The notes beneath the pieces are model-generated. The model saw only the letters and a program-made list of their open reading frames with translations, made no database searches and was not told where the DNA came from. Position numbers and translations under genes: made by a program. Shown piece by piece: positions 2,451 through 59,035 of a DNA stretch of 64,000 nt. Numbering within the stretch: position 1 is the first letter of the stretch; each line of letters starts with the position of its first letter. Source of the stretch: a bacterium. Its GTDB lineage: Bacteria; SZUA-182; DTGQ01; JAFGSM01. Location: NCBI GenBank assembly GCA_016934595.1, contig JAFGSM010000080.1, positions 1,000 through 64,999 of the forward strand, given 5' to 3'.

Positions 2451-3521
2451 TCAAGCGGTTTGCCTCATGCCAAAGCCAATGCCTAAACAAACTATAATCC
2501 CTATTATTACAGATGCAGGGCCCCATACGGACGGACCTGTGGGGGCGCTTGCCATCGCAAAATTATGTGCAAAAGCGGCTCCGGCCAGCATCCCGAGTAC
2601 AAATATGGCTGCATCTCCATCCCCCTCGCCTGACATGAACAACTGCCTTCCAGGGCACCCCCCCGCAAGCGCAAATGCAAGGCCGGCCAGCACCATGCCT
2701 CCGAAATTCCATAAATGGTTGCTATGGGCTATTGGCTGGCCTGTTATTCCAGGTTGGAACTGCCTGAAAACAAGATTTGTAATAAAAGCTCCGGCTATCA
2801 AGGCAATAACCCCGGAAATAAGATGCGTGTCGCGAATCAGTATAATATCCCTGAATGCGCCCATTGTGCAAAACCTGGTCCTCTGTGCCAGGAATCCTAT
2901 GATTATGGCAATGCTAAGGGATATAAGAACAGGGGCATATTGCGCCCCTGGACCGCTTTCACTGAAAAAAAGGCCGCCTGTAGGGAGCTTTGGCCGGAAA
3001 AGAAGGAGGAGAAGGAATGCAATCATGGTGACAGGAAACAGCAGCCCTGCGAATGTGTTTGACTTATGGTTCCGGCCCAGACTATACCCCGATTTTATAA
3101 AAAGGACGCCGATCCATACCCCAACAACAAGACCCAATATCCCTAAAATGGCATTGCCATCCCCGCCAGCGAGCCTGAGCATGGCGCGCCATGGGCATCC
3201 AAGGAAAACAAGCGACCCTGTCATGGCAAAAAAGCCCAAGATAAACCTTGCGATGGGGGAAGATCCTCCTCTGGGCTTATATTCTTTAAAAAGCAATGCG
3301 GCGATAAATGCCCCAAGCACAAAACCGATGATCTCAGGCCTCATGTATTGCACAACCGCCGCACGGTGAAAACCCAGTGCCCCTGCAATATCCCTTTCCA
3401 TACAGGCCACGCATATCCCCATATTTTTGGGGTTTCCCAGCCTTTGTAAGATGGAGGCAAAGACGCCTATGATTGATCCCACAATGACAATGCCCTTCCT
3501 GGTTGTAAAGAATTTTGACAT
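2451..3521 (-). CDS. YeeE/YedE-family membrane transporter (thiosulfate/sulfur- or selenium-compound uptake)
   Basis: A 356-aa polytopic membrane protein with two repeated halves and conserved Cys-containing motifs (CVACMERDIAGALG and ALAGGCPGRQLF) typical of YeeE/YedE. It is immediately followed by a TusA-like gene, as in the known yeeE-yeeD pairs. Confidence 0.75.
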   Translation of the reverse strand: MSKFFTTRKGIVIVGSIIGVFASILQRLGNPKNMGICVACMERDIAGALGFHRAAVVQYMRPEIIGFVLGAFIAALLFKEYKPRGGSSPIARFILGFFAMTGSLVFLGCPWRAMLRLAGGDGNAILGILGLVVGVWIGVLFIKSGYSLGRNHKSNTFAGLLFPVTMIAFLLLLLFRPKLPTGGLFFSESGPGAQYAPVLISLSIAIIIGFLAQRTRFCTMGAFRDIILIRDTHLISGVIALIAGAFITNLVFRQFQPGITGQPIAHSNHLWNFGGMVLAGLAFALAGGCPGRQLFMSGEGDGDAAIFVLGMLAGAAFAHNFAMASAPTGPSVWGPASVIIGIIVCLGIGFGMRQTA

Positions 3522-3806
3522 ACTGTCGTAACCCCCCTTTCGTTTTAGATAAACAAGGCAGATTAGTAATTATTCAATATGCTGCTAATATGGCCCATAT
3601 AGCCTCTTTAGAAATTGCAGTTGTAAACTATTATATTATTAATAAAATCAATATGTCAAATTGAAATTTTAAATAATAGCCCCCTTTTGAATCAGAAATA
3701 ACTATATTTACGAGTCCATCAATATTTCGGTATGCGTGTTTCATTATTTTATAAATAGCAACCTTCAAATTGACAGATTTCCCTTCATATAGTAAGCTTT
3801 TCTGAT

Positions 3807-5870
3807 ATGATTTATATCCAGAACATCAAAAAACATTTCGGGCACAAAACCATATTCGATAGCGCTTCAGCCCATATACCCCCTAAGACTAGAGTTGGCC
3901 TGGTGGGACCCAATGGCTCTGGGAAAACTACGCTCCTTCGGATCTTAACCGGTGAAGAGGAACTGGATGGCGGCGGTATCTTTATAAATAAAGGAGCCCG
4001 GGCCGGTTATCTCAAACAGGAGGTATGGGATAATCCAGACCGCGGCATTTTGGCAGAGACGCTGTCGGGTTTTCCTGATCTTCAAAAGATTGAACAGGGC
4101 CTGATAGAACTGGAACGGCAGATGGAGGGCAAATTTCTGCCTGACACCCTTGAAAAATATGGAGAGTTGCGTCATCTTTTTGAGATACAAGGCGGTTACG
4201 ATATAGAACATCAGGCCAAGTCATTGCTTTGCGGCATGGGTTTCCGTCCGGAGCAATTCGCTCAGCCCCTGCACCAGTTCTCAGGCGGTTGGATGATGCG
4301 CGTCTGTCTCGCTAAATTACTATTGGCCAAGCCCGATGTGCTTTTGCTGGATGAGCCAACGAACCATCTTGACCTGGAGACTATATTATGGCTTGAAAAT
4401 TTTTTGCTTGAATATCCTGGCACCATCGTGTTCACAACACACGACCAGGTATTTATGCAGAATGTGGCAGGGCGTATTCTGGAAATCAGCCGGTGCAAGT
4501 TGTTTACATTTATAGGAAGCTTCGAGGAATATGTGGAGGAAAAGGCTTCCAGGCAGGAACAGATCGAGGCCCAGTATAAAAACCAGCAGAAAAAGGTCGA
4601 ACAGCAGGAGCGTTTTATTGAGCGCTTCCGGTACAAGGCCACCAAGGCAAAGCAGGTGCAAAGCCGTATCAAAATGCTTCAGAAAAAGGAACGGGTGGAT
4701 ATGATAGAAGACACCCCGCGTGCGATGAAGATTCGCCTGCCCCAACCACCCCGGTCAGGTCAAAAGGTGGTGCATGTCTCAAATGTTACAAAAAAATACG
4801 GCGAGAAGACGGTCTATGAAGGGCTAAACCTTATCATCGAACGGGGTGAGAAGGCGGTGCTGGTTGGGCCGAACGGTGCAGGCAAATCTACACTCCTCAA
4901 GATTATAGCCGGAGTAATAGACATCCAGGCTGGAACCGTATCTTATGGCCACCAGGTCACAATGGATTACTACGCCCAGCATCAGCTCGAAACCCTGAAT
5001 CCGGATTTCAGCATACTGGAGGAATTGACGGCTGTGACACAGGACTTCACTCTTGAGAAACGCCGAAAACTATTAGGGGCATTCCTGTTCTCAGGCGAAG
5101 ATGTTTTTAAGCGCATCTCCATTTTGTCCGGCGGCGAAAAGGCACGAATCGCCCTGGTTAAAATGCTATGCCGGCCAATGAATTTCCTGGTCATGGATGA
5201 GCCTACCAATCACCTGGATATCCTTTCTCGTCAGGTACTTGAGGATGCGCTGTCAGACTATGATGGAACACTTGTTTTTATCTCCCATGACAGGGCATTT
5301 ATCAATTCCTTCGCAAACCGTGTTATCGAGATCAGGGATGGCAAACTGCACAGCTATCCAGGAAATTACGATGACTATGAATGGAAAAAAGCCCAGGAAA
5401 AACCACAAACACCTCTTGATCAAAAAATAAAAAACCGGCTGTCACCCGAATGCGTGGCCCCGGATATTCACGGCTCAAATTCTAATGAAAAGCCCATGAA
5501 TCTTAGATTCACAAAGGGGAATGAAAATATACAGAAGGGATTTTCAGATAAAAAAATCCCGGGCAAAAAAGACGGGCGTCGCGTGCGAGCCGAAAGGATA
5601 CAGGAAAAATCCAGGCGTCTAAAACCGCTTAAGGAGAAACTGGCTATTCTGGAAAAAGATATAGCAGCCCTGGAAGCAGAAAAAGAGGTAATCTCATCGG
5701 CAATATGCGACCCTAATATCATAAGCGATACTTCAGTCTATCCGCAAAAACTCAAAAGACACCGTGTCCTTGAGACAAGACTCCAAATATATTATGACGA
5801 ATGGGCAGAAACTTCCCAGCAGATAGAGGAAACCCTTTCAGAGTTTTCAGAGTTACAACCGGGTGATTAA
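3807..5870 (+). CDS. ABC-F family ATPase (EttA/Uup/YheS-like, two ABC domains) with an extended C-terminal tail
   Basis: Two Walker A motifs ([18 protein letters not shown]), two ABC signature motifs ([19 protein letters not shown]) and no TMDs. The C-terminal roughly 150 aa is a coiled-coil tail that contains an in-frame copy of the dispersed repeat (aa ...[23 protein letters not shown]...). Confidence 0.85.
5496..5560 (+). repeat. One unit of the dispersed structured repeat family, inserted in-frame in the ABC-F tail
   Basis: ATGAATCTTAGATTCACAAAGGGGAATGAAAATATACAGAAGGGATTTTCAGATAAAAAAAT matches the units at 58878, 14803 and 8911. It contains two palindromes: TGAATCTtAGATTCA and GAAAATatacagaagggATTTTC. 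Confidence 0.7.
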
Positions 5871-5906
5871 GATCATCTTAAAAGTCAGACCAACACATTA
5901 ATGACA

Positions 5907-6308
5907 TTACAGATAATCGCAAACCATAAACTTATAACCATCCTCAAAAAGCACCTCCATTTTTTGTGGAGTGATTATATTAGTAACAATCCCTATGCCA
6001 AATTTACTATGATTGATTATCTCATCGATCTTATAAGAACCTCCCATAGTATATAATTTGGCCGAAGCAGAGTCCTTATTTGCCAGAATTTCCTTCCATA
6101 ATTCTGTCTCCTTTTCCTGTGTCCGCGCCAGTTTACCCCTTTTCTTCCTGGGCGCTTTTTCAGTCTTGGATACATCAGCGGACTCTTTCAGTTTAGCCTT
6201 TTTACGGATGCCTGGTTCGCTGGCTCTATAGATATGTTGAGCCTGGCAGGTAAGGCATTTCACCTTCTTGGGACGTCCATCTAAAATGGCCACTACAACA
6301 TGGTTCAA
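5907..6308 (-). CDS. Hypothetical small protein: N-terminal CxxC zinc-ribbon-like motif, Lys-rich linker, C-terminal UvrD/PcrA-C-terminal (Tudor-like) resembling segment
   Basis: A 133-aa ORF. KKVKCLTCQAQH and a basic low-complexity stretch are followed by KIDEIINHSKFGIGIVTNI, which resembles the GDxVxHxxFGxGxV motif. No confident family assignment. Confidence 0.35.
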   Translation of the reverse strand: MNHVVVAILDGRPKKVKCLTCQAQHIYRASEPGIRKKAKLKESADVSKTEKAPRKKRGKLARTQEKETELWKEILANKDSASAKLYTMGGSYKIDEIINHSKFGIGIVTNIITPQKMEVLFEDGYKFMVCDYL

Positions 6309-6662
6309 AACCAGTTTGCATTTTGTACAGTATGCGTCGATCTCATCGCCTGCTATTATTTCTTCTTTTATTTTAATTTTAATCTCCCCCTTCCCTTGAT
6401 AAAATATTTAAAATACAATATCGATCAATATGCCATTTGTGTTTACAGATTTTTCATAATGCCCCCAAATTTTAGATATTATATCAAAGATCAATCAAAA
6501 ATTGAAGTCGTGAAATAACTAATTGTAATCATATATAATAGGCAGAAACGCTTCAATTTTTGTGTCTAACTTTTTGATGAGTTTATAACTTCTAACCTCT
6601 AAAGTTTTAATTAATAAATACCGATAAATAATAGTAGATAATAAAATAAAGGAGGGGGGATA

Positions 6663-7076
6663 ATGAATCTCGTAGAAATAGGGGAAAGGGAAAAGGTTCA
6701 AAGGAAAAAAACCTTAAACCCGTGCCGGATATTGATCGTGGATGACGATCTTTCAATCCGTTCACTGCTGCAAAACTTGCTTAACATGAAGGGCTATGAT
6801 GTCTGGACAGCCGAAGATGCCCTTGCGGCATACCAGGAGATAGAAAGTATCAACCCTCAGTTAATCATTCTCGATATCAGATTGCCATCTGTGGATGGGA
6901 TTGATTTTTTGCATATACTCCAAAATAAGAATATCCATGCGAAGGTCATATTTATGAGCGCTTATGACGATATGGACATCGACAGGGCCTTTTATATGGG
7001 GGCGTATGATTATATAAAAAAGCCCTTTCACCCTGAAGAGATTATCCATTCTATAGAAAAAGTCCTGAATTATTGA
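6663..7076 (+). CDS. Single-domain response regulator (CheY-like receiver)
   Basis: ILIVDDDLSIRSLL...LIILDIRLPSVDGIDFL...KVIFMSAY...KPF carries the receiver-domain Asp pocket and the phospho-acceptor Asp in ILDIRLP. A strong RBS (aaggagggggga) lies 4 nt upstream of the ATG. Confidence 0.8.
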   Translation: MNLVEIGEREKVQRKKTLNPCRILIVDDDLSIRSLLQNLLNMKGYDVWTAEDALAAYQEIESINPQLIILDIRLPSVDGIDFLHILQNKNIHAKVIFMSAYDDMDIDRAFYMGAYDYIKKPFHPEEIIHSIEKVLNY

Positions 7077-7179
7077 GCGCCTTGATATTCCGCAGCTTTA
7101 AAAAAGGCACGAATCGTTCCGGCGCATCTGTCCCAAAGTGCATATTCAGCGGCTGTCAGATAAATTATCAACCTCGAAT

Positions 7180-8547
7180 TTAGATGCCTTTCATTTTCCT
7201 GGCAATGCCTTCCCATGTATAATTTTCTTGTATATTATTCCATCCTCTCTGGGCCATCATATGGGCATTTTGCCAATCAAACAAAATTTTCTCTACACCC
7301 CATACCATTGAACTCGTATTATCATAGATCTGAATGCCGTTTTCTTCATGATTTATCAGCCCACAACCTCCGGCCTGTGTGGCTACCACAGGTTTCTTTG
7401 CGCTCCATGCGGAAAGCACCTGAAATGGCTTAGCCCTTTTCCTATTCGGGATCACAACCATATCGGCAGTCTGAAACAGATCATAAAGGTCTCTTCCTTC
7501 CTTGTGACCGACTAAACGAATGGCATGTTCAAAATATAAATAATGGGCCTTAAGTCTCATAGTCCACATCAATTCGCCTTCCCCTACCAATAAAAACCGG
7601 ACCTGCGGATTATTCTTCAGCAAGGCAGGTATTGCATCCACTAAAATATCCGGAGCGTATGCATCATTAAACTCACCTACAAAAAGGGCCAAAGGGTCTA
7701 TAGGTCCTATCGCATATCTTCTTTTGATCTCCCCTTGATCTTTTATACCCTGAAAATCCTGCCAGTTAAATGGCTCTGAAACAACAAACAGCTTGTTATC
7801 AGGCAGTGAGAAACGTTCCTGGATGTCCGCTTTGACTTTCTGATCATGGAAGAAAATCTTTTGACTCCACTGGACTAATCCCTTCTCAAACAAAGCCGCC
7901 TGCCGGGCGGTCTCATCCGCTTTCTCAAATTCTATTAAATTATCATTCGAATGAAGGGTCAATACTATCCGCCTGGGTATGCCGTTTTGAAGGGATTCTA
8001 TCGCCTTTGCGGGCTGCCAATCATGACAATGAATCACATCAAAATGCCTTCCCTTTGCCTCTATCTCTTTTATTGTTTCATAGATACTGGCGCCAAAACT
8101 ATAACAGCTTTTCAACATTGAGAGGGAGGGATCGACCTGGATACGATGAAAATTTACTCCGTCTATTATCTCATTAGCGGCCTGACCCTGTTTTCTCCTT
8201 GTGAATACGTGGACCTCGTCACCTCCACGTGCCATGACAGATGCCAGGTTACAGGCATATACCCCTCTTGGCCCATTAGGTTCCCCATGTATACAATCCC
8301 AACTTAAAATGGCAACCTTCGACATCTTGGTTTGCAAAGCAACCGGGGTCAAGCTCAATACGGATTTCGGCTCTTCTGTCTCAATATCCTTTTTAACAGC
8401 CTGCTTATCTTCTTCACGGGGTTTGATAACCGTAAACTGTTCAAGCGACTTTTTAAAACCTTTACTCTTGGGATTTTTGACAGGTATTTTAACCTGCACG
8501 GGCTTTTGAGTTGAAGCCAACTCTCCTATTGGCGCCATCATATCCAT
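7180..8547 (-). CDS. Glycosyltransferase (GT1/GT5 glycogen/starch-synthase-like) with an ~80-aa Lys-rich N-terminal extension
   Basis: The central segment KVAILSWDCIHGEPNGPRGVYACNLASVMARGGDEVHVF resembles the GT5 N-terminal domain. The C-terminal segment FVGEFNDAYAPD...LVGEGEL...VVIPNRKRAKPFQVL matches the Glycos_transf_1 E-x7-E region. Confidence 0.65.
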   Translation of the reverse strand: MDMMAPIGELASTQKPVQVKIPVKNPKSKGFKKSLEQFTVIKPREEDKQAVKKDIETEEPKSVLSLTPVALQTKMSKVAILSWDCIHGEPNGPRGVYACNLASVMARGGDEVHVFTRRKQGQAANEIIDGVNFHRIQVDPSLSMLKSCYSFGASIYETIKEIEAKGRHFDVIHCHDWQPAKAIESLQNGIPRRIVLTLHSNDNLIEFEKADETARQAALFEKGLVQWSQKIFFHDQKVKADIQERFSLPDNKLFVVSEPFNWQDFQGIKDQGEIKRRYAIGPIDPLALFVGEFNDAYAPDILVDAIPALLKNNPQVRFLLVGEGELMWTMRLKAHYLYFEHAIRLVGHKEGRDLYDLFQTADMVVIPNRKRAKPFQVLSAWSAKKPVVATQAGGCGLINHEENGIQIYDNTSSMVWGVEKILFDWQNAHMMAQRGWNNIQENYTWEGIARKMKGI

Positions 8548-8910
8548 AGCAATCCTCCAATTTCCATAAAATTTAAGTGGATATTGTTTAAAGATAAATA
8601 AAAAAGGATATGCCCCCCCAACTTTTTAAACGGCCACCCTACCCTGCTAAAAATATTACTTACAAATCCTCATGCCGGATCGCGGCGATACAAGAATCAT
8701 AATAAACAACAAGATTTTTTCAAAACAAAGATAAACCAAAAGGGTTAAAAAATCAAATCGTATAAAAATTATATAATGTTTGGACTATTTAGATTTATAC
8801 CTAATTTGTAGTCGAATGTCAATCCGCTTTTTTGTCCATTTTTTTGTCATCCTGAAGACGTGAGGGGTTCATTTTCAATAGTTGGCGACCTTGGCTGGCT
8901 ATATGGCAAA

Positions 8911-8990
8911 TCAATGAAACACTCATGCCTAAATTCGACACAAAGGAGAATGAAAATCCAAAACTATTTTCAGGTGAAAATCAGCGCAGA
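8911..8990 (+). repeat. One unit of the dispersed structured repeat family (intergenic)
   Basis: AATGAAACACTCATGCCTAAATTCGACACAAAGGAGAATGAAAATCCAAAACTATTTTCAGGTGAAAA is nearly identical to one unit (rc) inside the ydbH-like gene at about 14880-14935. It is open-reading-frame-like (MPKFDTKENENPKLFSGENQRRKIEIPK*). Confidence 0.7.
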
Positions 8991-9173
8991 AAAATAGAAA
9001 TCCCGAAGTGATAACTTCGAGGAGTAAAGGTTGATATTTTAGGCTTGTTTATCTATAATTACACGCGTTAATTATCTGCTAAGATTCCTATTTAAACAGG
9101 GAGTTTCATGAAGGATGTTCGGGTGGAATTAAAGCTTAACTTAAATGACATTGGATTGCGAATTCATACGACT

Positions 9174-9246
9174 GCGCCCGTAGCTCAGGGGACAGAGCGC
9201 AGCGCTCCGGACGCTGAAGCCGAAGGTTCAAGTCCTTCCGGGCGCA
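9174..9246 (+). tRNA. tRNA-Arg (anticodon CCG)
   Basis: Hand-folded cloverleaf. Acceptor GCGCCCG/CGGGCGC, D-stem GCTC/GAGC with a G18G19 loop, anticodon stem CAGCG/CGCTG, loop CTCCGGA (U33, CCG, G37), T-stem GAAGG/CCTTC and T-loop TTCAAGT, discriminator A. No encoded CCA. The six-frame ORF 9108..9302 is an artefact over this tRNA. Confidence 0.85.
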
Positions 9247-9269
9247 TAATTATTTCCTTAATTAACAAT

Positions 9270-9391
9270 GATGGCCTCGTAAAAAGTCTAAAATGCCCTT
9301 AAAAATAAGTTTAATATTATAATTTTGATACATGTTTTGTCGATATAATCTTAGTTTTTCATCATTAAAAATACTTTTTACGAGGCCATCA
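9270..9391. mobile_element. MITE-like element: 18-bp perfect terminal inverted repeats (GATGGCCTCGTAAAAAGT / ACTTTTTACGAGGCCATC) flanked by a 6-bp direct repeat AACAAT
   Basis: Read directly: left TIR 9270-9287 is preceded by AACAAT (9264-9269); right TIR 9374-9391 is followed by AACAAT (9392-9397). The interior is AT-rich and non-coding. It lies 24 bp downstream of tRNA-Arg. Degenerate solo TIR-like copies occur at about 3697-3716 and 13683-13700. Confidence 0.6.
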
Positions 9392-9424
9392 ACAATGCCG
9401 ATAAGAAGATAGAACCTTTTCAAT

Positions 9425-11080
9425 ATGAAATTTAAGGGGGGAAATATGCATAAAAGATATCTATATAATAATAAACGCCCATGTCACCTTATATCGCCAC
9501 AAATAATGAGAATAAACAACGAGATTTATTTTAGGAACAAATATCCATGGCACTTTGGAGCCGCCACGAATCATGAAAATCGAACCTATTTTCGAGACAA
9601 ACGCTCATGCCGCTTCGCTGCGCCACGAATCATGAAAATAAACAACGATGTTTATTTTCGAGACAACAAGAATAAAAACCCTTTGTCCTCGATGTGCCTT
9701 TCTGTAATGATTGTAATGATGATGATAATATTGCCTTGTCTCATTTCTGGCCATGCTATAGCAGACGAAAACAGTGCATTCCCGTTCTATCCATCTTTAA
9801 TCATTCCGGCAGCAGACGGGGGAATAGGTCTGGATGCCTTTAAGGCCGCTATGTCCTGCAGAGGATGTCACCTTTCTACCTTCAAGGAATGGGAGGGATC
9901 AACACACTCCCTTGCCTTTAAAGACCCTGTATTTCTTTCGATGTGCAGATTAGGTTCCAAAGCAACAAACGGACAAACGGACAAATTGTGTCTTGGATGC
10001 CATACACCCATAGGGCTTATTACATCCGATATAACAACCCCTGATGATGAAACTAAGGCAAATCAAATCTCCAAAGATGGCGTTCAGTGCGATTTTTGCC
10101 ATGTCGTAAGCAATACGACCTATAACAAAGCCAAGACCGCTTCCCCCCAGAATGCGTCATTCCTTGTCCAGCCAGGGGAAATTAAATGGGGGCCGATAGA
10201 CAATTGTGAATCCACATTCCACAAATCGGAATTTTCCGAGCTTCATACCAGTTCCAAGTTTTGTGGCAACTGCCACAATATCTTCTTGACAGGCCAGGAT
10301 ATCAAGATTGTAAAGACCTACGACGAATGGGAAAAATCCGTTTACGCCCAGAAAGGTATAGAGTGCCAGGACTGCCATATGATGCCTGTTGAATTGGCAA
10401 AAATAGCGGCAGACAAACTGGAAAAACCTAAAAATTCCGGTAAGGCCGCATCCGTTGCGCCCTTGAGAGAAAATATACATGTGCACAGGTTTGTCGGCGG
10501 AGGATTCGATCTGGAAAAAGGCCCACGCGTAACTAATCAGCAGAAAGAGACGGAAAAAAGGCTAAAAAGCGCGGCAAGACTGGATATCGATGTTAAGCCC
10601 TCCCCTTCCTCAAAAGGCAGCCTGGTCTTAACGGTAACCGTACACAATGAAAGGGCGGGCCATAATCTGCCTACAGGGATCCCTGGCATAAGGCAGTTAT
10701 GGCTTGAGGTAATCATCTCAGACAAAGGCTCAAAAGAGGTGTTTCGTTCAGGCGGCCTGGATAAAGACGGAAATATCCAAAAAGACGCAAAGCGCCTTGG
10801 TGTTGCAGCCGTTGACAAATCAGGCGACCCTGTATATAAACCCTGGGAAATTGCGGCATTAAAGACAGATACAACCATCCCTCCGAAGGGAAAAGGGGGG
10901 TTCAAATTCGACGTAAGCCTTCCCGATGACATTGCGTGGCCGATGACTGCGAAAGCCATTCTTCACTACAGGGCATTCAGTCCATCATTGCTTAAGGATC
11001 TTTTGCCGGATGCCCCTCGTGAGATACCTGTCTTTGACATGGCAACATCAGAGATCGCCATACAAGGCCCTGTTCTCTGA
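9425..11080 (+). CDS. Multiheme c-type cytochrome (five CxxCH motifs), secreted
   Basis: CRGCH, CLGCH, CDFCH, CGNCH and CQDCH are present. A signal-peptide-like segment MCLSVMIVMMMIILPCLISGHAIA sits at about aa 90, which suggests the real start is near 9692. The first roughly 270 nt of the listed ORF are the tandem repeat units. Confidence 0.8.
   Translation: MKFKGGNMHKRYLYNNKRPCHLISPQIMRINNEIYFRNKYPWHFGAATNHENRTYFRDKRSCRFAAPRIMKINNDVYFRDNKNKNPLSSMCLSVMIVMMMIILPCLISGHAIADENSAFPFYPSLIIPAADGGIGLDAFKAAMSCRGCHLSTFKEWEGSTHSLAFKDPVFLSMCRLGSKATNGQTDKLCLGCHTPIGLITSDITTPDDETKANQISKDGVQCDFCHVVSNTTYNKAKTASPQNASFLVQPGEIKWGPIDNCESTFHKSEFSELHTSSKFCGNCHNIFLTGQDIKIVKTYDEWEKSVYAQKGIECQDCHMMPVELAKIAADKLEKPKNSGKAASVAPLRENIHVHRFVGGGFDLEKGPRVTNQQKETEKRLKSAARLDIDVKPSPSSKGSLVLTVTVHNERAGHNLPTGIPGIRQLWLEVIISDKGSKEVFRSGGLDKDGNIQKDAKRLGVAAVDKSGDPVYKPWEIAALKTDTTIPPKGKGGFKFDVSLPDDIAWPMTAKAILHYRAFSPSLLKDLLPDAPREIPVFDMATSEIAIQGPVL
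9473..9664 (+). repeat. Three tandem units (66, 60 and 66 bp) of the dispersed structured repeat family, immediately upstream of or inside the 5' end of the multiheme cytochrome ORF
   Basis: The three units are at 9473-9538, 9539-9598 and 9599-9664. Each contains CCACgAAtcATGAgAAT-loop-ATTTTcGAG-type hairpins (for example GAAAATAAACAacgaTGTTTATTTTC, an 11-bp perfect stem). All three are in-frame with the cytochrome ORF (…RFAAPRIMKINNDVYFRD…). Confidence 0.7.
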
Positions 11081-12029: not shown

Positions 12030-13040
12030 ATGACACCTTGCTTTCACCCCAGGCTGGTCAATGGCCCTTTCCATGACCCTGCCTTATATATAGATTTCCT
12101 CTATCAAAACAGGGCCATCCTTTTTGATATAGGAGACATATCGGCGCTGACGACAAAACATATCCATAAAATCACGGATGTCTTTGTCACGCATACCCAC
12201 ATGGATCATTTCATAGGATTGGACTATCTGATAAGGCTATTTCTTGGCAGGGACAAGCGGCTTTCCATATACGGCCCCCCAAGGATAATCGATAATGTGG
12301 CAGGAAAGCTCTCGGCCTATACATGGAATCTGGTTGACAATTTTGAAAACAGTTTCGAGATCCATGTCTTTGAATCGCACACAGATCACATAGAAAAGGC
12401 GATTCTGAAATGCCATAACCTCTTCCAAAAGGAGATGTGCCTTGAAAAAGCGCCTTTCAAAGACAAACTCCTGGACGAAGATGAATTTAGCATCCATACG
12501 GCCTTTCTTGATCATTTTACACCATGCCTGACATTCTGTCTGAAAGAGAAGTCCCATATAAATATCAAAAAGGACGTATTGGACACACTTGGCCTGCCTT
12601 CCGGCCCGTGGCTAAACCAGTTGAAAACAGCGATAAGGCAGCAGGAGCCGGATAATTATCCGATAACGATCAAGGCCAAGAGTTCGGATGATTCTCAGGG
12701 GCAGAAGACTACCCTGGGCTGGGTCAAACAAAAAGGCCTTTTCACAATTTCACAGGGGCAAAAGATAGCCTATGTTACAGATATAGGGTACACACAGGAA
12801 AATATATCCAGGTTAACCTCTTTTGCAATGGATGCGGACTATCTGTTTTGCGAGGCCGCATTCCTTGAAGAAGACAGCCAATTAGCGAAAAAGAAATGCC
12901 ATCTTACAGCGCATCAGGCAGGGCTGATAGCCAGACAGGCAAATGCAAGGAAACTTATCCCTTTCCATTTTTCCCCAAGATATCAGGGCAGGGAAGACCT
13001 TATTTACAAAGAGGCTGAAAGGTCCTTTACTTCTTCATAA
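12030..13040 (+). CDS. MBL-fold metallo-hydrolase (RNase Z/ElaC-like)
   Basis: Contains the HxHxDH motif (VTHTHMDHFIGLDYL) and downstream His/Asp ligands (DHF..., H at TAHQAG) typical of the metallo-beta-lactamase superfamily. Confidence 0.65.
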   Translation: MTPCFHPRLVNGPFHDPALYIDFLYQNRAILFDIGDISALTTKHIHKITDVFVTHTHMDHFIGLDYLIRLFLGRDKRLSIYGPPRIIDNVAGKLSAYTWNLVDNFENSFEIHVFESHTDHIEKAILKCHNLFQKEMCLEKAPFKDKLLDEDEFSIHTAFLDHFTPCLTFCLKEKSHINIKKDVLDTLGLPSGPWLNQLKTAIRQQEPDNYPITIKAKSSDDSQGQKTTLGWVKQKGLFTISQGQKIAYVTDIGYTQENISRLTSFAMDADYLFCEAAFLEEDSQLAKKKCHLTAHQAGLIARQANARKLIPFHFSPRYQGREDLIYKEAERSFTSS

Positions 13041-13635
13041 CCCAAGCGCCATCCTCTTGCTGTATCCACCAACCGGCAGGAGTACTTTTTTGCCAGCTTT
13101 TGGAAAATATCCTTTGTATCTCTTCCATATGCTCTGGCCCTAAGTTGTTTGCCTTCAGTATCTCCTCATATAACAACTTGCGATCCTTGTTTTCATCATC
13201 AACCAGGCGCATCAGATTCGACTTTTCTTTTAATCCAAGCCCCTGCAACTCACGTGCTTCGATCAGTCCCCTGTTTGTCTCCCCTATCCTGCCTGACTCA
13301 TAAAAAGGCCTTAAGCCTGAAAACCTGTTCTTTAAAGACTCCTTTAAAGAACGGATTGCTGGCGTTGTCACCTCAATATCCATTGCAGCATACGCAGCCG
13401 TGACAAATATGGCAAAATCATTCGTCCTGTTGCGAAGCATTGTTTCCTTATCCCCGCCCCCTGAAGGGGCCTCATCTGTTCGTGTATTATCCGTTCCACC
13501 TCCCCTTACCTCACCTACGATCTCATCAGCAGCCTTCTGGACCTCTGCTGCCGGAAAATATATGTTGACAGTCACACATGCAGCCACAACAAACAAAAAC
13601 ATAACGCATAGGACAACAATCCTTTTCTCTGACAT
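13027..13635 (-). CDS. YdbL-like periplasmic protein (DUF1318)
   Basis: Signal peptide plus the conserved DDENKDRKLLYEEILKAN motif of DUF1318/YdbL. It lies directly downstream of an AsmA/YdbH-like gene, as in the E. coli ydbH-ynbE-ydbL operon (no ynbE is visible here). Confidence 0.55.
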   Translation of the reverse strand: MSEKRIVVLCVMFLFVVAACVTVNIYFPAAEVQKAADEIVGEVRGGGTDNTRTDEAPSGGGDKETMLRNRTNDFAIFVTAAYAAMDIEVTTPAIRSLKESLKNRFSGLRPFYESGRIGETNRGLIEARELQGLGLKEKSNLMRLVDDENKDRKLLYEEILKANNLGPEHMEEIQRIFSKSWQKSTPAGWWIQQEDGAWVMKK

Positions 13636-13740
13636 CTTCCAATCCCCCTTTCGATTTTTGAATCCATTATCTCTTCATTGATCGCCTCGTAAAAAGCCGA
13701 TATTACCCTTCCTGTCATTGTGAAATGAATAGACCTCCTG

Positions 13741-15192
13741 CTAATTGACCTTTACTGCCGTACCCCTGTCCTCGAAAATCCTGTTGATCCTTTCCCTCAT
13801 ATCCTTAAAGCTTATTATGTTATCAGGGTTCTGATTGACCATATCGATCCCGCGGAAAAGCCCTTTTCTTATAATAAACTCCTGGCCGTCCTCCTGAATA
13901 AGCCCCCTCAGTGAAAAGATATCGTTTCTTAGCTCGCACCTGAACCCTATTTTTGAGTATGGATAATAGGAAAAAAATCTGTTTAATCCGGAATTAAGAA
14001 CACTCTGAACACCGGAAGACCCTGTGCCGATCATGGAGAGGTTATTAATGGCATCCACGCTGATCTTCTGCCTTACCCCTTTCTGTTTAACCGATTCCAC
14101 CTCCATCAAAAACCTTGCAGGCTGACCATATTCTATCACAAAATCGGTCAACTTTCCTTTGATAACACCGCTGATCTTGCCGATGGGAACCCTTTCTGTC
14201 AGCTTATCAAGCCCTATGCCATCCCAAAAGATAGACCCGCCCAGCCTTCTCCCCTGGCTGAAGGGCATCTCAAGATAAATATCCTTGATATCTAAACCTC
14301 CTCCGAATATTTCAGCATAAAGCGAGCCTGTAAAATCGATCCTGTCATTCTTATATGTCAGATGAGGTATATCTCCATCCAATCGCCCGGATACAGGAAA
14401 ACCTGATCCCTTTGAAATCGTCATCAGATCCAATGCCTTAATGCCTATGGATGCCTGGAAAACAGCGTTTTTGGAGATTATCTCCGCGCCGCTCAGCTCC
14501 CTCAAAAAGACTTCCCCACCGAAGATATTTATATAGACAGGGTCCTTTATCTGGAAACGGTTTTGAGAAAACATGGGATGCAGCTCCAAGTCATCATAAA
14601 ATCCATTTAGCCAGGAAACCTTCTTGATACGGATGACCCCTGAACGTCCATCTGTGAATGGCCCCTGTTCACAGAATGAAGACGCTGCAAGTTCTAAAGG
14701 CAATTCTATAGTCAGTCCAGAGATGGAGATTTCACAGGCAGGTATATCTATTGATGGAAAAGATGCCTTCCATTCGCCGCTAAGCCTCCAACCGCCACTT
14801 TCATCTGAAAATCCCTTCTGGGTATTTTCATTCCCCATTGTGAATCTAAAATTCATGGGCGTTTCACCTGAAAATAGTTTTGGATTTTCATTCTCCTTTG
14901 TGCCGAATTTAGGCATGAGTGTTTCATCTATCATCGCCCTTAGTTTAAAAACAGAGCATCCCGATATATTAATCCCCTGTAAAGCAGGCGGTCCCTGTTC
15001 ATTGCCTTCCGCGATGATAAAACCGAGGAGAGCGGAATGGTTGATGCCAGACGTCTTTGTCTCTAAATCAAGAGACAATCCCTTTTGATCCATTTTTATC
15101 TGAAACCGCAGGCCCCCGATCTCTAAAATATCCAGAACCCCTTTAGACTCTAAACGCTGAAAGTTTGCAAAAAAAAACCGCTTAAATCCCAC
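13741..15192 (-). CDS. YdbH/AsmA-family protein, C-terminal fragment (same gene as 15150..16550 after a +1T correction)
   Basis: Inserting one T in the T9 run (plus-strand A9 at about 15170-15178) joins ...WDLSGFF to FANFQRLESKG... in one frame, giving about 940 aa, comparable to E. coli YdbH. It contains two in-frame repeat units (...MPKFGTKENENPKLFSGETPMNFRFTMGNENTQKGFSDE...). Confidence 0.6.
   Translation of the reverse strand: MGFKRFFFANFQRLESKGVLDILEIGGLRFQIKMDQKGLSLDLETKTSGINHSALLGFIIAEGNEQGPPALQGINISGCSVFKLRAMIDETLMPKFGTKENENPKLFSGETPMNFRFTMGNENTQKGFSDESGGWRLSGEWKASFPSIDIPACEISISGLTIELPLELAASSFCEQGPFTDGRSGVIRIKKVSWLNGFYDDLELHPMFSQNRFQIKDPVYINIFGGEVFLRELSGAEIISKNAVFQASIGIKALDLMTISKGSGFPVSGRLDGDIPHLTYKNDRIDFTGSLYAEIFGGGLDIKDIYLEMPFSQGRRLGGSIFWDGIGLDKLTERVPIGKISGVIKGKLTDFVIEYGQPARFLMEVESVKQKGVRQKISVDAINNLSMIGTGSSGVQSVLNSGLNRFFSYYPYSKIGFRCELRNDIFSLRGLIQEDGQEFIIRKGLFRGIDMVNQNPDNIISFKDMRERINRIFEDRGTAVKVN
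14803..14935 (-). repeat. Two tandem units of the dispersed structured repeat family, in-frame inside the ydbH-like gene
   Basis: The reverse complement reads ...TGAAACACTCATGCCTAAATTCGGCACAAAGGAGAATGAAAATCCAAAACTATTTTCAGGTGAAACGCCCATGAATTTTAGATTCACAATGGGGAATGAAAATACCCAGAAGGGATTTTCAGATGAAA... One unit is nearly identical to the intergenic copy at 8911-8990. Confidence 0.7.
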
Positions 15193-24127: not shown

Positions 24128-25101
24128 GGTTTAGCCTCCCAGCAGCTTACAAGATGGCCCGGCCCGATCTCAACAAGCCTTGGCATATCTGTAATGCAAC
24201 GCTGCCTTGCCCGCTCGCATCTTGATGCAAAAGGGCACCCTATAGGCATGTCAAAGAGGTCGGGAACCGTGCCTTTGATCGTCTTCAGCCTGCCGCCCGC
24301 GATTTTCCTGTCATCAAGCCTCGGCAATGAATCAAGAAGCGCGATGGTATAAGGATGTAACGGGCCGTGAAAAAGATCCCTTACCCCCGCCTCTTCAACC
24401 ACATACCCTGCATACATAACCGAGACCTTCTGAGCAGTTTCCGCAACCACGCCGAGGTCATGAGTAACCATGAGAACAGACATACCCAAGCTGTTTTTCA
24501 GGCTGTCTATAAGCTCAAGTATCTGGGCCTGTATAGTAACATCCAGTGCCGAAGTGGGTTCATCTGCGATCAAGAGATCAGGCTGGCATGAAAGGGCCAT
24601 GGCTATCATCACCCTTTGCCTCATACCCCCGCTCATCTGATGGGGATAATCCTTGATCCTTTTTGAAGGATCTGGAATGCCAACCATGTCTAAGATCTCG
24701 ACAGACCTTTGGACCGCCTTTTTGTGGTCAACCCTTTGATGCAGGCGGATAGCTTCGGCTATCTGTTCTCCGACAGTGAAGACCGGATTCAAAGATGTCA
24801 TAGGTTCCTGAAAGATCATGGATGTTTCGTTTCCCCTGATATCGCGCATCTCATCCGGATCGAGACCGAGCAGGTCCCTGCCGTTAAAAGTGATCCTGCC
24901 TGACATAATCCTGCCCGGCGGGTTTGGGACAAGCCTCATGATTGAAAGGGAAAGCACTGTTTTACCGCATCCGGACTCTCCAACCAAACCCAGCGTTTCG
25001 CCTTTTTTTATCTTAAGGTCAACCCCGTTCACAGCCTTTACAACCCCGTCAGAGGTAAAGAAAAAGGTGTGCAGGTCTTCGACAGCAAGCAGGTACTTCA
25101 T
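24124..25101 (-). CDS. Oligopeptide/dipeptide ABC transporter ATP-binding protein (OppD/DppD-like)
   Basis: Walker [10 protein letters not shown], signature [12 protein letters not shown], Walker [13 protein letters not shown], and the C-terminal [14 protein letters not shown] motif. Confidence 0.85.
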
Positions 25102-25161
25102 CTGAAAATCCCTTTCATGTGTTTTTCATCCCTGTTTGCAGATAGAAAATTAATAAGGGTC

Positions 25162-27210: not shown

Positions 27211-28019
27211 GAAACCTTGATCTTTTCCGTGAAAGGGCTTTCTGGAAACTCCCGGCAGAGGTATGCCTGAACGCCCCTCGCCTCGTCTAACATGCCCTCC
27301 ATCATGTATGTCTGGGAAAGCAGATAAAGGGTCTCATCCCTCCACGGGACTTCAGGATAAAGCGACCATATCTTCTGAAGCCTGCCTCTTGCCGCCTTGT
27401 ACGAGCCGGTCTTCAGGTAAAACCTGGCCACATAGAGGTCATGCTCAGAAAGCCTCAAACGGCATTTGGATACACTATCCTTTGCCTCTTCTGTCATCTG
27501 GCTCTGCGGATATTCCTTGAGGAATCTCTCGAATGATTCCAGAGCCTTGATCGTATAAGTCTGATCCCGATCCGGCCCCAATATTTGCTTAAAAAATGTC
27601 TGCCCTATCCTGAACCTAGCCATGTCAGCCTTTGAATGGAGGGGGTGAAGATTAAGGAATCTCTCGTATTCCGCCCTTGCAGAATCAAATTCTTTGAGTT
27701 GAAAATAACAATCGGCCCTGTTCAGTCTGGTCTTGGCCATCAAAGGGCTCTCAGGATACTCCTCTGTCAGCCTGCCAAAGACCTCCTCCGCCTTCCGGAA
27801 TTTGTCCTTGCCCAGATAATCCATGGCCTGATTATATAGCTCCTGATCCGTAAGCACTCTTGCCTTTTTGCTGCAAGAAGGCAAGGCTGGGGACATGATG
27901 ACAAGGAGGCAGATAACCCATAGAGAAAATATGGTACGTCCTTTTTTATTTTCAATAAATATTTTCGTCTGAAAATCGTTTATGATTTTCATCCTCCTTT
28001 GTGCCAATTTTATTGGCAT
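27186..28019 (-). CDS. bamD: Outer-membrane protein assembly factor BamD-like TPR lipoprotein
   Basis: Lipobox ALPSC after a signal peptide, then TPR repeats with BamD-like motifs (YNQAMDYLGKDKFRKAEEVF..., ...YVARFYLKTGSYKAARGRLQ...). The true start is probably an internal Met. Confidence 0.65.
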   Translation of the reverse strand: MPIKLAQRRMKIINDFQTKIFIENKKGRTIFSLWVICLLVIMSPALPSCSKKARVLTDQELYNQAMDYLGKDKFRKAEEVFGRLTEEYPESPLMAKTRLNRADCYFQLKEFDSARAEYERFLNLHPLHSKADMARFRIGQTFFKQILGPDRDQTYTIKALESFERFLKEYPQSQMTEEAKDSVSKCRLRLSEHDLYVARFYLKTGSYKAARGRLQKIWSLYPEVPWRDETLYLLSQTYMMEGMLDEARGVQAYLCREFPESPFTEKIKVSCKDIEPE

Positions 28020-58877: not shown

Positions 58878-59035
58878 AAATGAAACACCCATGAATCTAC
58901 GATTCACAAAAAAGGATGAAAATACCCAAAGGGGATTTTCAGGTGAAAAAATAAAATGAAACACACATAAATCTCTCGCCTCACAAAGAAGTGTGCGAAT
59001 ACCCAAACAGGGATTTTCATGTGAAAAAATAAAAA
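58878..59035 (+). repeat. Two tandem units of the dispersed structured repeat family (intergenic, upstream of an epimerase gene)
   Basis: Unit 1 is AAATGAAACACCCATGAATCTACGATTCACAAAAAAGGATGAAAATACCCAAAGGGGATTTTCAGGTGAAAAAATA. Unit 2 is AAATGAAACACACATAAATCTCTCGCCTCACAAAGAAGTGTGCGAATACCCAAACAGGGATTTTCATGTGAAAAAATA. Unit 1 is itself a mini-ORF: MNLRFTKKDENTQRGFSGEKIK*. Confidence 0.7.

Follow-up and report, generated by a model that had tools for sequence, protein, structure and literature searches.

A probable non-autonomous transposon downstream of a tRNA-Arg gene shares its ends with IS1182-like insertion sequences of Desulfobacterota

The 64-kb stretch of bacterial DNA analysed here (the window) carries a tRNA-Arg(CCG) gene on the plus strand at nt 9173–9247, predicted by ARAGORN and matched by the Rfam model RF00005 with 67 bits. 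The genes around it encode a glycosyltransferase, a response regulator, a multihaem cytochrome and a metallo-beta-lactamase-fold protein. A sigma-70-type promoter match (TTGATA, 17-nt spacer, TATAAT; 11/12) is found on the plus strand at nt 9031–9059, about 115 nt upstream of the tRNA gene, and from its sequence is a plausible candidate for the tRNA-Arg promoter.

Downstream of the tRNA gene, which lies outside it, is a short element bounded by inverted repeats. Its left terminal inverted repeat (TIR; GATGGCCTCGTAAAAAGT, nt 9270–9287, plus strand) is followed by an AT-rich, non-coding interior of 85 nt (nt 9288–9372) and by the right TIR (ACTTTTTACGAGGCCATC, nt 9373–9390, minus strand), which is the perfect complement of the left. 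The perfect 18-bp repeats described in the earlier note are present as claimed, and extend to 19 nt when T9269 is counted, giving arms of TGATGGCCTCGTAAAAAGT (nt 9269–9287) and ACTTTTTACGAGGCCATCA (nt 9373–9391) that are 100% complementary and 85 nt apart. By our own arithmetic, a perfect 19-nt inverted repeat within 200 nt would be expected about 5 × 10^-5 times by chance in 64 kb. From GATGG to CCATC the element measures 121 bp; the bounded unit had been recognised before, with its length put at 122 bp. It is flanked by two copies of AACAAT, one at nt 9264–9269, which fits the AANNTT target of the family (see below) at five of six positions, and one at nt 9391–9396, directly outside the right arm. 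Both had been noted previously, with the end of the segment placed at nt 9397, one base too far. Including the two copies, the segment spans nt 9264–9396 (133 bp), and the empty site at the tRNA-Arg locus can be reconstructed as ...TTCCTTAATTAACAATGCCGATAAGAAG... The distance from the end of the tRNA gene is 22 nt to the inverted repeat and 16 nt to AACAAT, and not the 24 bp given earlier.

The only ORFs that cross the element are of 53 and 64 codons, the latter overlapping the tRNA gene, and the element shows no sequence similarity to the cognate transposase described below. One promoter-like match lies inside it, on the minus strand from nt 9343 to 9316; with four matches in the region against 2.9 expected from shuffled sequences, promoters are not in excess there.

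Further copies of the end sequence were sought within the window. Three matches to the 18-mer were found at up to three mismatches, against 0.08 expected, and none of 100 shuffled sequences reached three. A second, truncated copy lies on the plus strand at nt 13680–13710, consisting of a left TIR that agrees at 16 of 18 positions (nt 13680–13697) and about 13 nt of interior, without a right end. The earlier note had rightly seen a degenerate repeat here, placing it 3 nt off, at nt 13683–13700. Nucleotides 13676–13710 are 80% identical to nt 9266–9300 and the match runs on from the TIR into the interior, which assigns this truncated copy to the subfamily of the complete element; the subfamily has thus occupied no fewer than two sites in this genome. 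The copy sits between an ORF at nt 13741–15192 and a DUF1318 gene at nt 13027–13635, both on the minus strand. Another sequence, TTTACGAGTCCATC (nt 3707–3726, plus strand), is a possible decayed right end, agreeing weakly at 14 of 18 positions (nt 3707–3720) and followed by AATATT; no left partner was found. The sequence had been located at nt 3697–3716 and taken as another degenerate TIR. About 0.5 matches of this quality are expected by chance in the window (own arithmetic), so the solo copy is within chance and is not established. The window thus holds one complete element, one truncated copy and one doubtful remnant.

The exact 18-mer was scanned across GTDB representatives, one genome per species, and among the matches listed it occurs at a minimum of 105 loci in 67 assemblies (at least 105), so the sequence is not confined to a single occurrence. 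Nearly all of the hosts among the matches listed are MAGs of Desulfobacterota type, with labels that include Desulfobacteraceae, Desulfosarcina, Desulfatitalea, Smithella, Syntrophaceae, Thermodesulfobacteriota and 'Deltaproteobacteria'; three are Nitrospirota and a few carry unspecific labels. Several assemblies hold many copies, with up to nine loci in one MAG among the matches listed. Several of the matches fall no more than about 50 nt from a true contig end, a pattern expected where high-copy repeats interrupt assembly.

At most loci the 18-mer is followed within 45–292 bp by a degenerate ACTTTTTACGAnnnCATC, while the sequence between the two differs. Small elements with the same ends were collected (81 elements, 45–292 bp), and 43 of them show a perfect 6-bp direct repeat in the exact register. 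When the flanks were shuffled, the mean was 1.5 and the maximum 6, and when the register was shifted by 1–3 nt, 0–1 matches remained. The target consensus is AANNTT: among the 81 elements, the first base is A in 68 and the sixth is T in 71. The TIR consensus is GATGGCCTCGTAAAAAGTC, to which the left TIR of the element in the window is identical; positions 5–7 are variable and the core TCGTAAAAAGT is nearly invariant. Perfectly matching arms are found in only four of the 81 family members, suggesting that the insertion beside tRNA-Arg is relatively recent. A 4-bp duplication with TG...CA ends was considered, as T ends most of the left flanks, and was rejected, both because flanks without the A...T pattern still match at all six positions (e.g., TTATTT) and because shifting the register abolishes the match.

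Clustering of the 81 elements gave at least 27 unrelated interiors carried on one TIR across the 67 genomes. The interior of the element studied here (nt 9288–9372) is a singleton among 27 interior clusters, with no relative in the 80 other elements, and an exact scan of JGI metagenomes for the TIR/interior junction GTAAAAAGTCTAAAATGCCCTT gave no match. The interior of the largest cluster (33 of 81 elements) is a hairpin module, and a sequence matching it, CTGGGTTCCGGCTTTCGCCGGAATGACAGG, is present in the window at nt 2020–2060. It has no recognisable inverted repeat there and is immediately adjoined by a unit belonging to a second repeat family (described below), an arrangement that, judged from the sequence, suggests mosaic assemblies of repeat modules.

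At seven of 110 left ends, the right end of another element lies exactly 6 nt upstream, with one duplication shared between the two. Such head-to-tail arrays were seen in L072 (nt 3503–5681), L088 (nt 4354–6415), L020 (nt ~7016–7240), L070 (nt 1730–2041), L045 (nt 4240–4416) and L085 (nt ~6557–6712); the order in L072 is MITE-AAACTT-MITE-AAACTT-insertion sequence-AAACTT, where MITE denotes the small non-autonomous element. Spacing by a single 6-bp copy of the target indicates repeated insertion into the duplication left by an earlier insertion, and the sharing of one duplication points to a strong target preference.

An autonomous insertion sequence with matching ends, which the earlier note had proposed looking for, was found in a Desulfatitalea MAG, where a 5.66-Mb contig (CAXXCO010000002.1) carries three identical copies of a 1901-bp element. 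Its ends are GATGAAATCGTAAAAAGT and ACTTTTTACGAGGCCATC, the right end being equal to the left TIR of the element in the window, and the identity among the three copies stops exactly there. Their duplications differ (AAACTT, AATATT and AACCTT). The single ORF encodes a protein of 583 aa with DUF772, DDE_Tnp_1 and DDE_Tnp_1_6 domains, the Pfam matches to DUF772 and DDE_Tnp_1_6 being above their cutoffs. Against the NCBIfam IS1182 model NF033551 the protein aligns over its full length with 171.7 bits; as the curated cutoff is 270, it is IS1182-like and not a certified member, and the family assignment is approximate. Relatives on plasmids, about 26% identical to it, bear an IS1182-family annotation. 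No cognate transposase was found in the window when the 583-aa protein was used as a tblastn query over the 64 kb (E ≤ 1e-3), in agreement with what had been reported from the sequence alone.

A protein search returned 4,588 relatives of the transposase at E ≤ 1e-30, most of them on stand-alone contigs of about 1.9–2.3 kb. Four further homologs were fetched (61–76% identity), all with the same inverted repeats. In each of them the right repeat terminates 17 nt past the stop codon, and in three the left repeat lies 124–134 nt before the ATG, none being detected in the fourth (L110); the matching duplications are AAGATT, AATATT, AATATT and ATGTTT. Altogether, six transposase variants with these ends were found (61–100% identical), no two from the same assembly or metagenome, and for five of the six both ends and 6-bp duplications are present on the fetched DNA. 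Elements range from 1888 to 1901 bp, with one ORF of 579–583 aa and 18-nt inverted repeats. In locus L102, a truncated transposase homolog (68% identical) lies 133 nt from an exact copy of the 18-mer. The only transposase homolog labelled '[bacterium]', MCP4622954.1, was considered as coming from the same MAG as the window and was set aside, its accession being unlike that of the window protein MBN2372977.1 (JXL19_04230).

A more distant relative of the transposase (40% identical) is carried by an alphaproteobacterial plasmid, that of Microvirga sp. VF16 (NZ_CP069355.1, locus L109), and lacks an annotation in the PLSDB gene table, itself incomplete. Its bounds are formed by a 36-nt inverted repeat (nt 528–563 and 2312–2347) of which the inner 18 nt, GACGGGGCGGTAAAAAGT, resemble the Desulfobacterota repeat, while the outer half holds a second GACGG motif. 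Since the Microvirga relative ends in this sequence, the core GTAAAAAGT appears to be an old feature of the transposase clade.

These comparisons show that the inverted repeats beside tRNA-Arg are the end sequences of an insertion sequence of about 1.9 kb with one gene, encoding a DUF772 + DDE_Tnp_1_6 transposase of about 580 aa, and that elements with these ends bear 6-bp duplications at AANNTT-type targets. By sequence, the transposase is taken to be a divergent relative of the IS1182 family, and the insertion sequence is widespread in bacteria of the sulfate-reducer type. TIRs of this kind also fit an in-situ origin, in which a full-length insertion sequence inserted next to tRNA-Arg and then lost its interior, the 121-bp unit never having transposed itself. 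An intact 6-bp duplication is consistent with such a single insertion, and a one-off deletion product would be expected to show a unique interior, as is seen here. However, the subterminal DNA of the insertion sequences sampled contains, beyond the TIR, nothing similar to the 85-nt interior, and the truncated copy at nt 13680–13710 shares about 13 nt of it, placing the small element or its progenitor at more than one position. On this evidence a deletion remnant is very unlikely, and an element that moved as a small unit is preferred.

The position of the element raises two further alternatives. The stretch directly 3' of a tRNA gene is a classic position for integration, and AACAAT could in principle represent the half-sites of an att site, or of a scar left by a phage, a genomic island or another integrative element. 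The repeated 6-mer, however, is not part of the tRNA, the same TIRs are found at hundreds of sites unrelated to tRNAs, and an att site is effectively excluded because no repeat of the tRNA 3' end occurs in the first 20 kb of the window and no integrase is encoded among the neighbouring genes. We consider this explanation to have a negligible chance of being correct.

In the second alternative, the 19-bp stem is a functional structured RNA or regulatory hairpin of the tRNA-Arg transcription unit, with a role in termination or processing, or as a small RNA. The predicted RNA fold is stable (−35.6 kcal/mol, z = −6.9 relative to shuffled sequences), and no intrinsic terminator was detected across nt 9000–9800, making read-through from the tRNA gene plausible. 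A tRNA gene is present in six of the 105 foreign loci, and in three of them (L054, L056 and L073) a family member lies 85–97 nt 3' of it, so that, with the window, four of about 110 elements are found just 3' of a tRNA. This enrichment is weak and may reflect permissive AT-rich spacers, and most family members lie away from tRNAs. The hairpin also lacks a T-run after its stem. Rfam searches of the window at the gathering threshold, and of nt 8800–9800 and 14650–15050 at a permissive threshold, returned the tRNA and noise only, with no match to the hairpin above noise. Conservation of the whole segment in distant relatives, named in the earlier note as a sign of a regulatory element, was not observed, the loop being conserved nowhere among the sampled elements. 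Above all, the stem sequence terminates an insertion sequence that encodes a transposase, as well as dozens of unrelated small elements that carry duplications; as a transposon end present at hundreds of unrelated sites, it is improbable as a dedicated regulatory hairpin, and a role of that kind would be secondary and co-opted at best. It is conceivable that the 19-bp stem, if transcribed, affects formation of the tRNA 3' end.

The locus was also searched for in other sequence data. The tRNA-proximal flank GCGCATAATTATTTCCTTAATT had no exact match in JGI metagenomes, and exact-protein look-ups at the locus returned just two Logan contigs, both short and both from the same organism, which is also contained in the read set SRR13394437. 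These short-read contigs stop at window positions 8968 and 9637, either side of the tRNA and the MITE. The break points fall within copies of the second repeat family and not within the MITE; such copies surround the region, and contig ends are expected around repeats.

This second family is unrelated to the first and consists of units of about 63–66 nt. In the window, units occur on the plus strand at nt 2066–2119, at nt 14799–14927 (two in tandem, within the minus-strand ORF at nt 13741–15192), at nt 27969–28005 and, weakly, at nt ~25097–25160; and on the minus strand at nt 5486–5553 (within the ORF at nt 3807–5870, an ABC-F ATPase), at nt 8914–8979 (98% identical to nt 14862–14927), at nt 9473–9666 (three diverged units in tandem) and at nt 58881–58948. 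Relatives were found elsewhere in L041 (nt 7490–7559), L044 (nt 341–407) and L068 (nt 629–690). Each unit forms two predicted hairpins, TGAAAAT-loop-ATTTTCA followed by a variable stem just before CATG, and the conserved flanks are GTTTCAnCTGAAAAT and CATGGGCGTTTCA. In the second stem, both sides co-change in several copies at four of five predicted pairs, with three to five standard pair types each. No Rfam match to this family was found in the permissive searches of nt 8800–9800 and 14650–15050. The copies at nt 5486–5553 and 14799–14927 provide a stop-free frame inside long ORFs, one translation being ETLMPKFGTKENENPKLFSGETPMNFRFTMGNENTQKGFSDE. At the repeat, the linker of the ABC-F protein is about 47 residues longer than that of E. 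coli YheS (residues 542–599, against 544–554 of YheS), which is reminiscent of the way Rickettsia palindromic elements insert in frame.

The three tandem units at nt 9473–9666 bear on the annotation of the cytochrome gene downstream of the MITE. The deposited protein (P0001) is 544 aa long and the longest ORF starts at nt 9425, while homologs have about 460–480 aa, and a signal-peptide-like sequence, MCLSVMIVMMMIILPCLISGHA, starts at nt 9692. The extra length is probably explained by extension of the ORF across the neighbouring repeat units, the annotated N-terminus reading through all three, and the true start is likely to be at nt 9692; repeats at this locus thus mislead annotation. Neither the deposited cytochrome nor the shortened version had a record in the exact-protein look-ups, and the nearest cytochrome homolog, at 55% identity, has different neighbours and is not syntenic.

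The segment at nt 9264–9396 is therefore, with high confidence, a non-autonomous DNA transposon (MITE) of 121 bp, in which two perfect 18-nt TIRs enclose an 85-nt non-coding core. This is the class proposed in the earlier note, and it accords with the TIRs, the 6-bp duplication, the small non-coding size and the partner insertion sequence. Transposase provided in trans by a full-length element, located elsewhere in the genome now or at an earlier time, would have bound both TIRs and joined the element ends to a 6-bp staggered cut at an AANNTT-type site, here AACAAT, and repair of the gaps would have produced the flanking duplication. The insertion point would have been in the AT-rich spacer, 16 nt past the end of tRNA-Arg(CCG). 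Should the 3' end of the tRNA or the cytochrome gene further downstream be affected, this would be a side effect.

The MITE is real and undescribed in searchable papers, but it is ordinary in kind: a routine mobile-DNA insertion, with nothing to suggest a new mechanism. The TIR sequence is absent from the searchable open literature save for chance matches to primers, ISfinder lying outside this comparison, and a term search of the open literature for MITEs and sulfate reducers returned no Desulfobacterota MITE by title or abstract. The most notable features are the breadth of the family, its modular interiors and its habit of tandem insertion. Taken jointly, the observations allow a broader reading that we offer tentatively, as possible and not as established. 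It envisages an undescribed MITE superfamily across much of Desulfobacterota and some Nitrospirota, with dozens of unrelated modular interiors on a nearly invariant end of 18–19 nt, GATGnnnTCGTAAAAAGTC, that would owe their mobility to a large and divergent clade of IS1182-like transposases with over 4,500 proteins. Its members would make 6-bp duplications at AANNTT and re-insert preferentially into the duplication beside an existing copy, giving head-to-tail arrays. There may also be a mild preference for sites just 3' of tRNA genes, where a transcribed hairpin could affect tRNA 3'-end formation.

In practical terms, one short conserved end tags both an abundant repeat family and its parent insertion sequence of about 1.9 kb in many Desulfobacterota MAGs. 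Such repeats break short-read assemblies, with many of the family matches at contig ends and most of the parent contigs standing alone at about 2 kb. With its regular 6-bp duplication at AANNTT and its tandem arrays, the family offers a testable handle on target choice, which is useful because the insertion behaviour of the IS1182 family has been reported as heterogeneous, some members targeting palindromes (PMC5678879).

Among known insertion sequences, the partner element compares best with the IS1182 family, which includes IS1272 of staphylococci and ISAcma46, annotated in Acaryochloris. The DUF772 + DDE_Tnp_1_6 architecture of the transposase and its full-length alignment to the NCBIfam model are shared with this family, and the size of about 1.9 kb, the single ORF and the short TIRs also fit, IS1272 being 1,934 bp long with 16-bp inverted repeats (PMC5678879). 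It differs in the strength of the match (171.7 against the cutoff of 270 bits) and in having only about 26% identity to annotated members. The AANNTT target is a palindromic hexamer, which may be compared with the targets of the palindrome-seeking members. IS1272 itself makes no target duplication and replaces stem-loops (PMC5678879), unlike the partner clade described here, which makes a regular 6-bp duplication.

REP and REPIN sequences, associated with RAYT (Y1) transposases, are likewise short, abundant, intergenic and hairpin-forming, with possible inverted doublets. The present family differs from them in that its arms are not self-palindromic, duplications are present, no RAYT gene is flanked and the partner is an insertion sequence with a DDE transposase.

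Bacterial MITEs described previously include the Correia elements of Neisseria, RUP of Streptococcus pneumoniae and MITEAba12 of Acinetobacter (PMC6382973; review PMC10969869). The element beside tRNA-Arg resembles these in being a short, non-coding and intergenic unit (~100–150 bp) with TIRs and a target-site duplication, in having TIRs in common with an insertion sequence that would supply transposase in trans, and in the long hairpin it would form if transcribed. It differs from them in its TIR sequence, its 6-bp AANNTT duplication and its IS1182-like partner, the duplication of MITEAba12 being outside this comparison. Correia elements duplicate TA, and RUP is linked to IS630-Spn1. With at least 27 interiors on one TIR, the family described here is also more modular than a typical MITE family of a single species.
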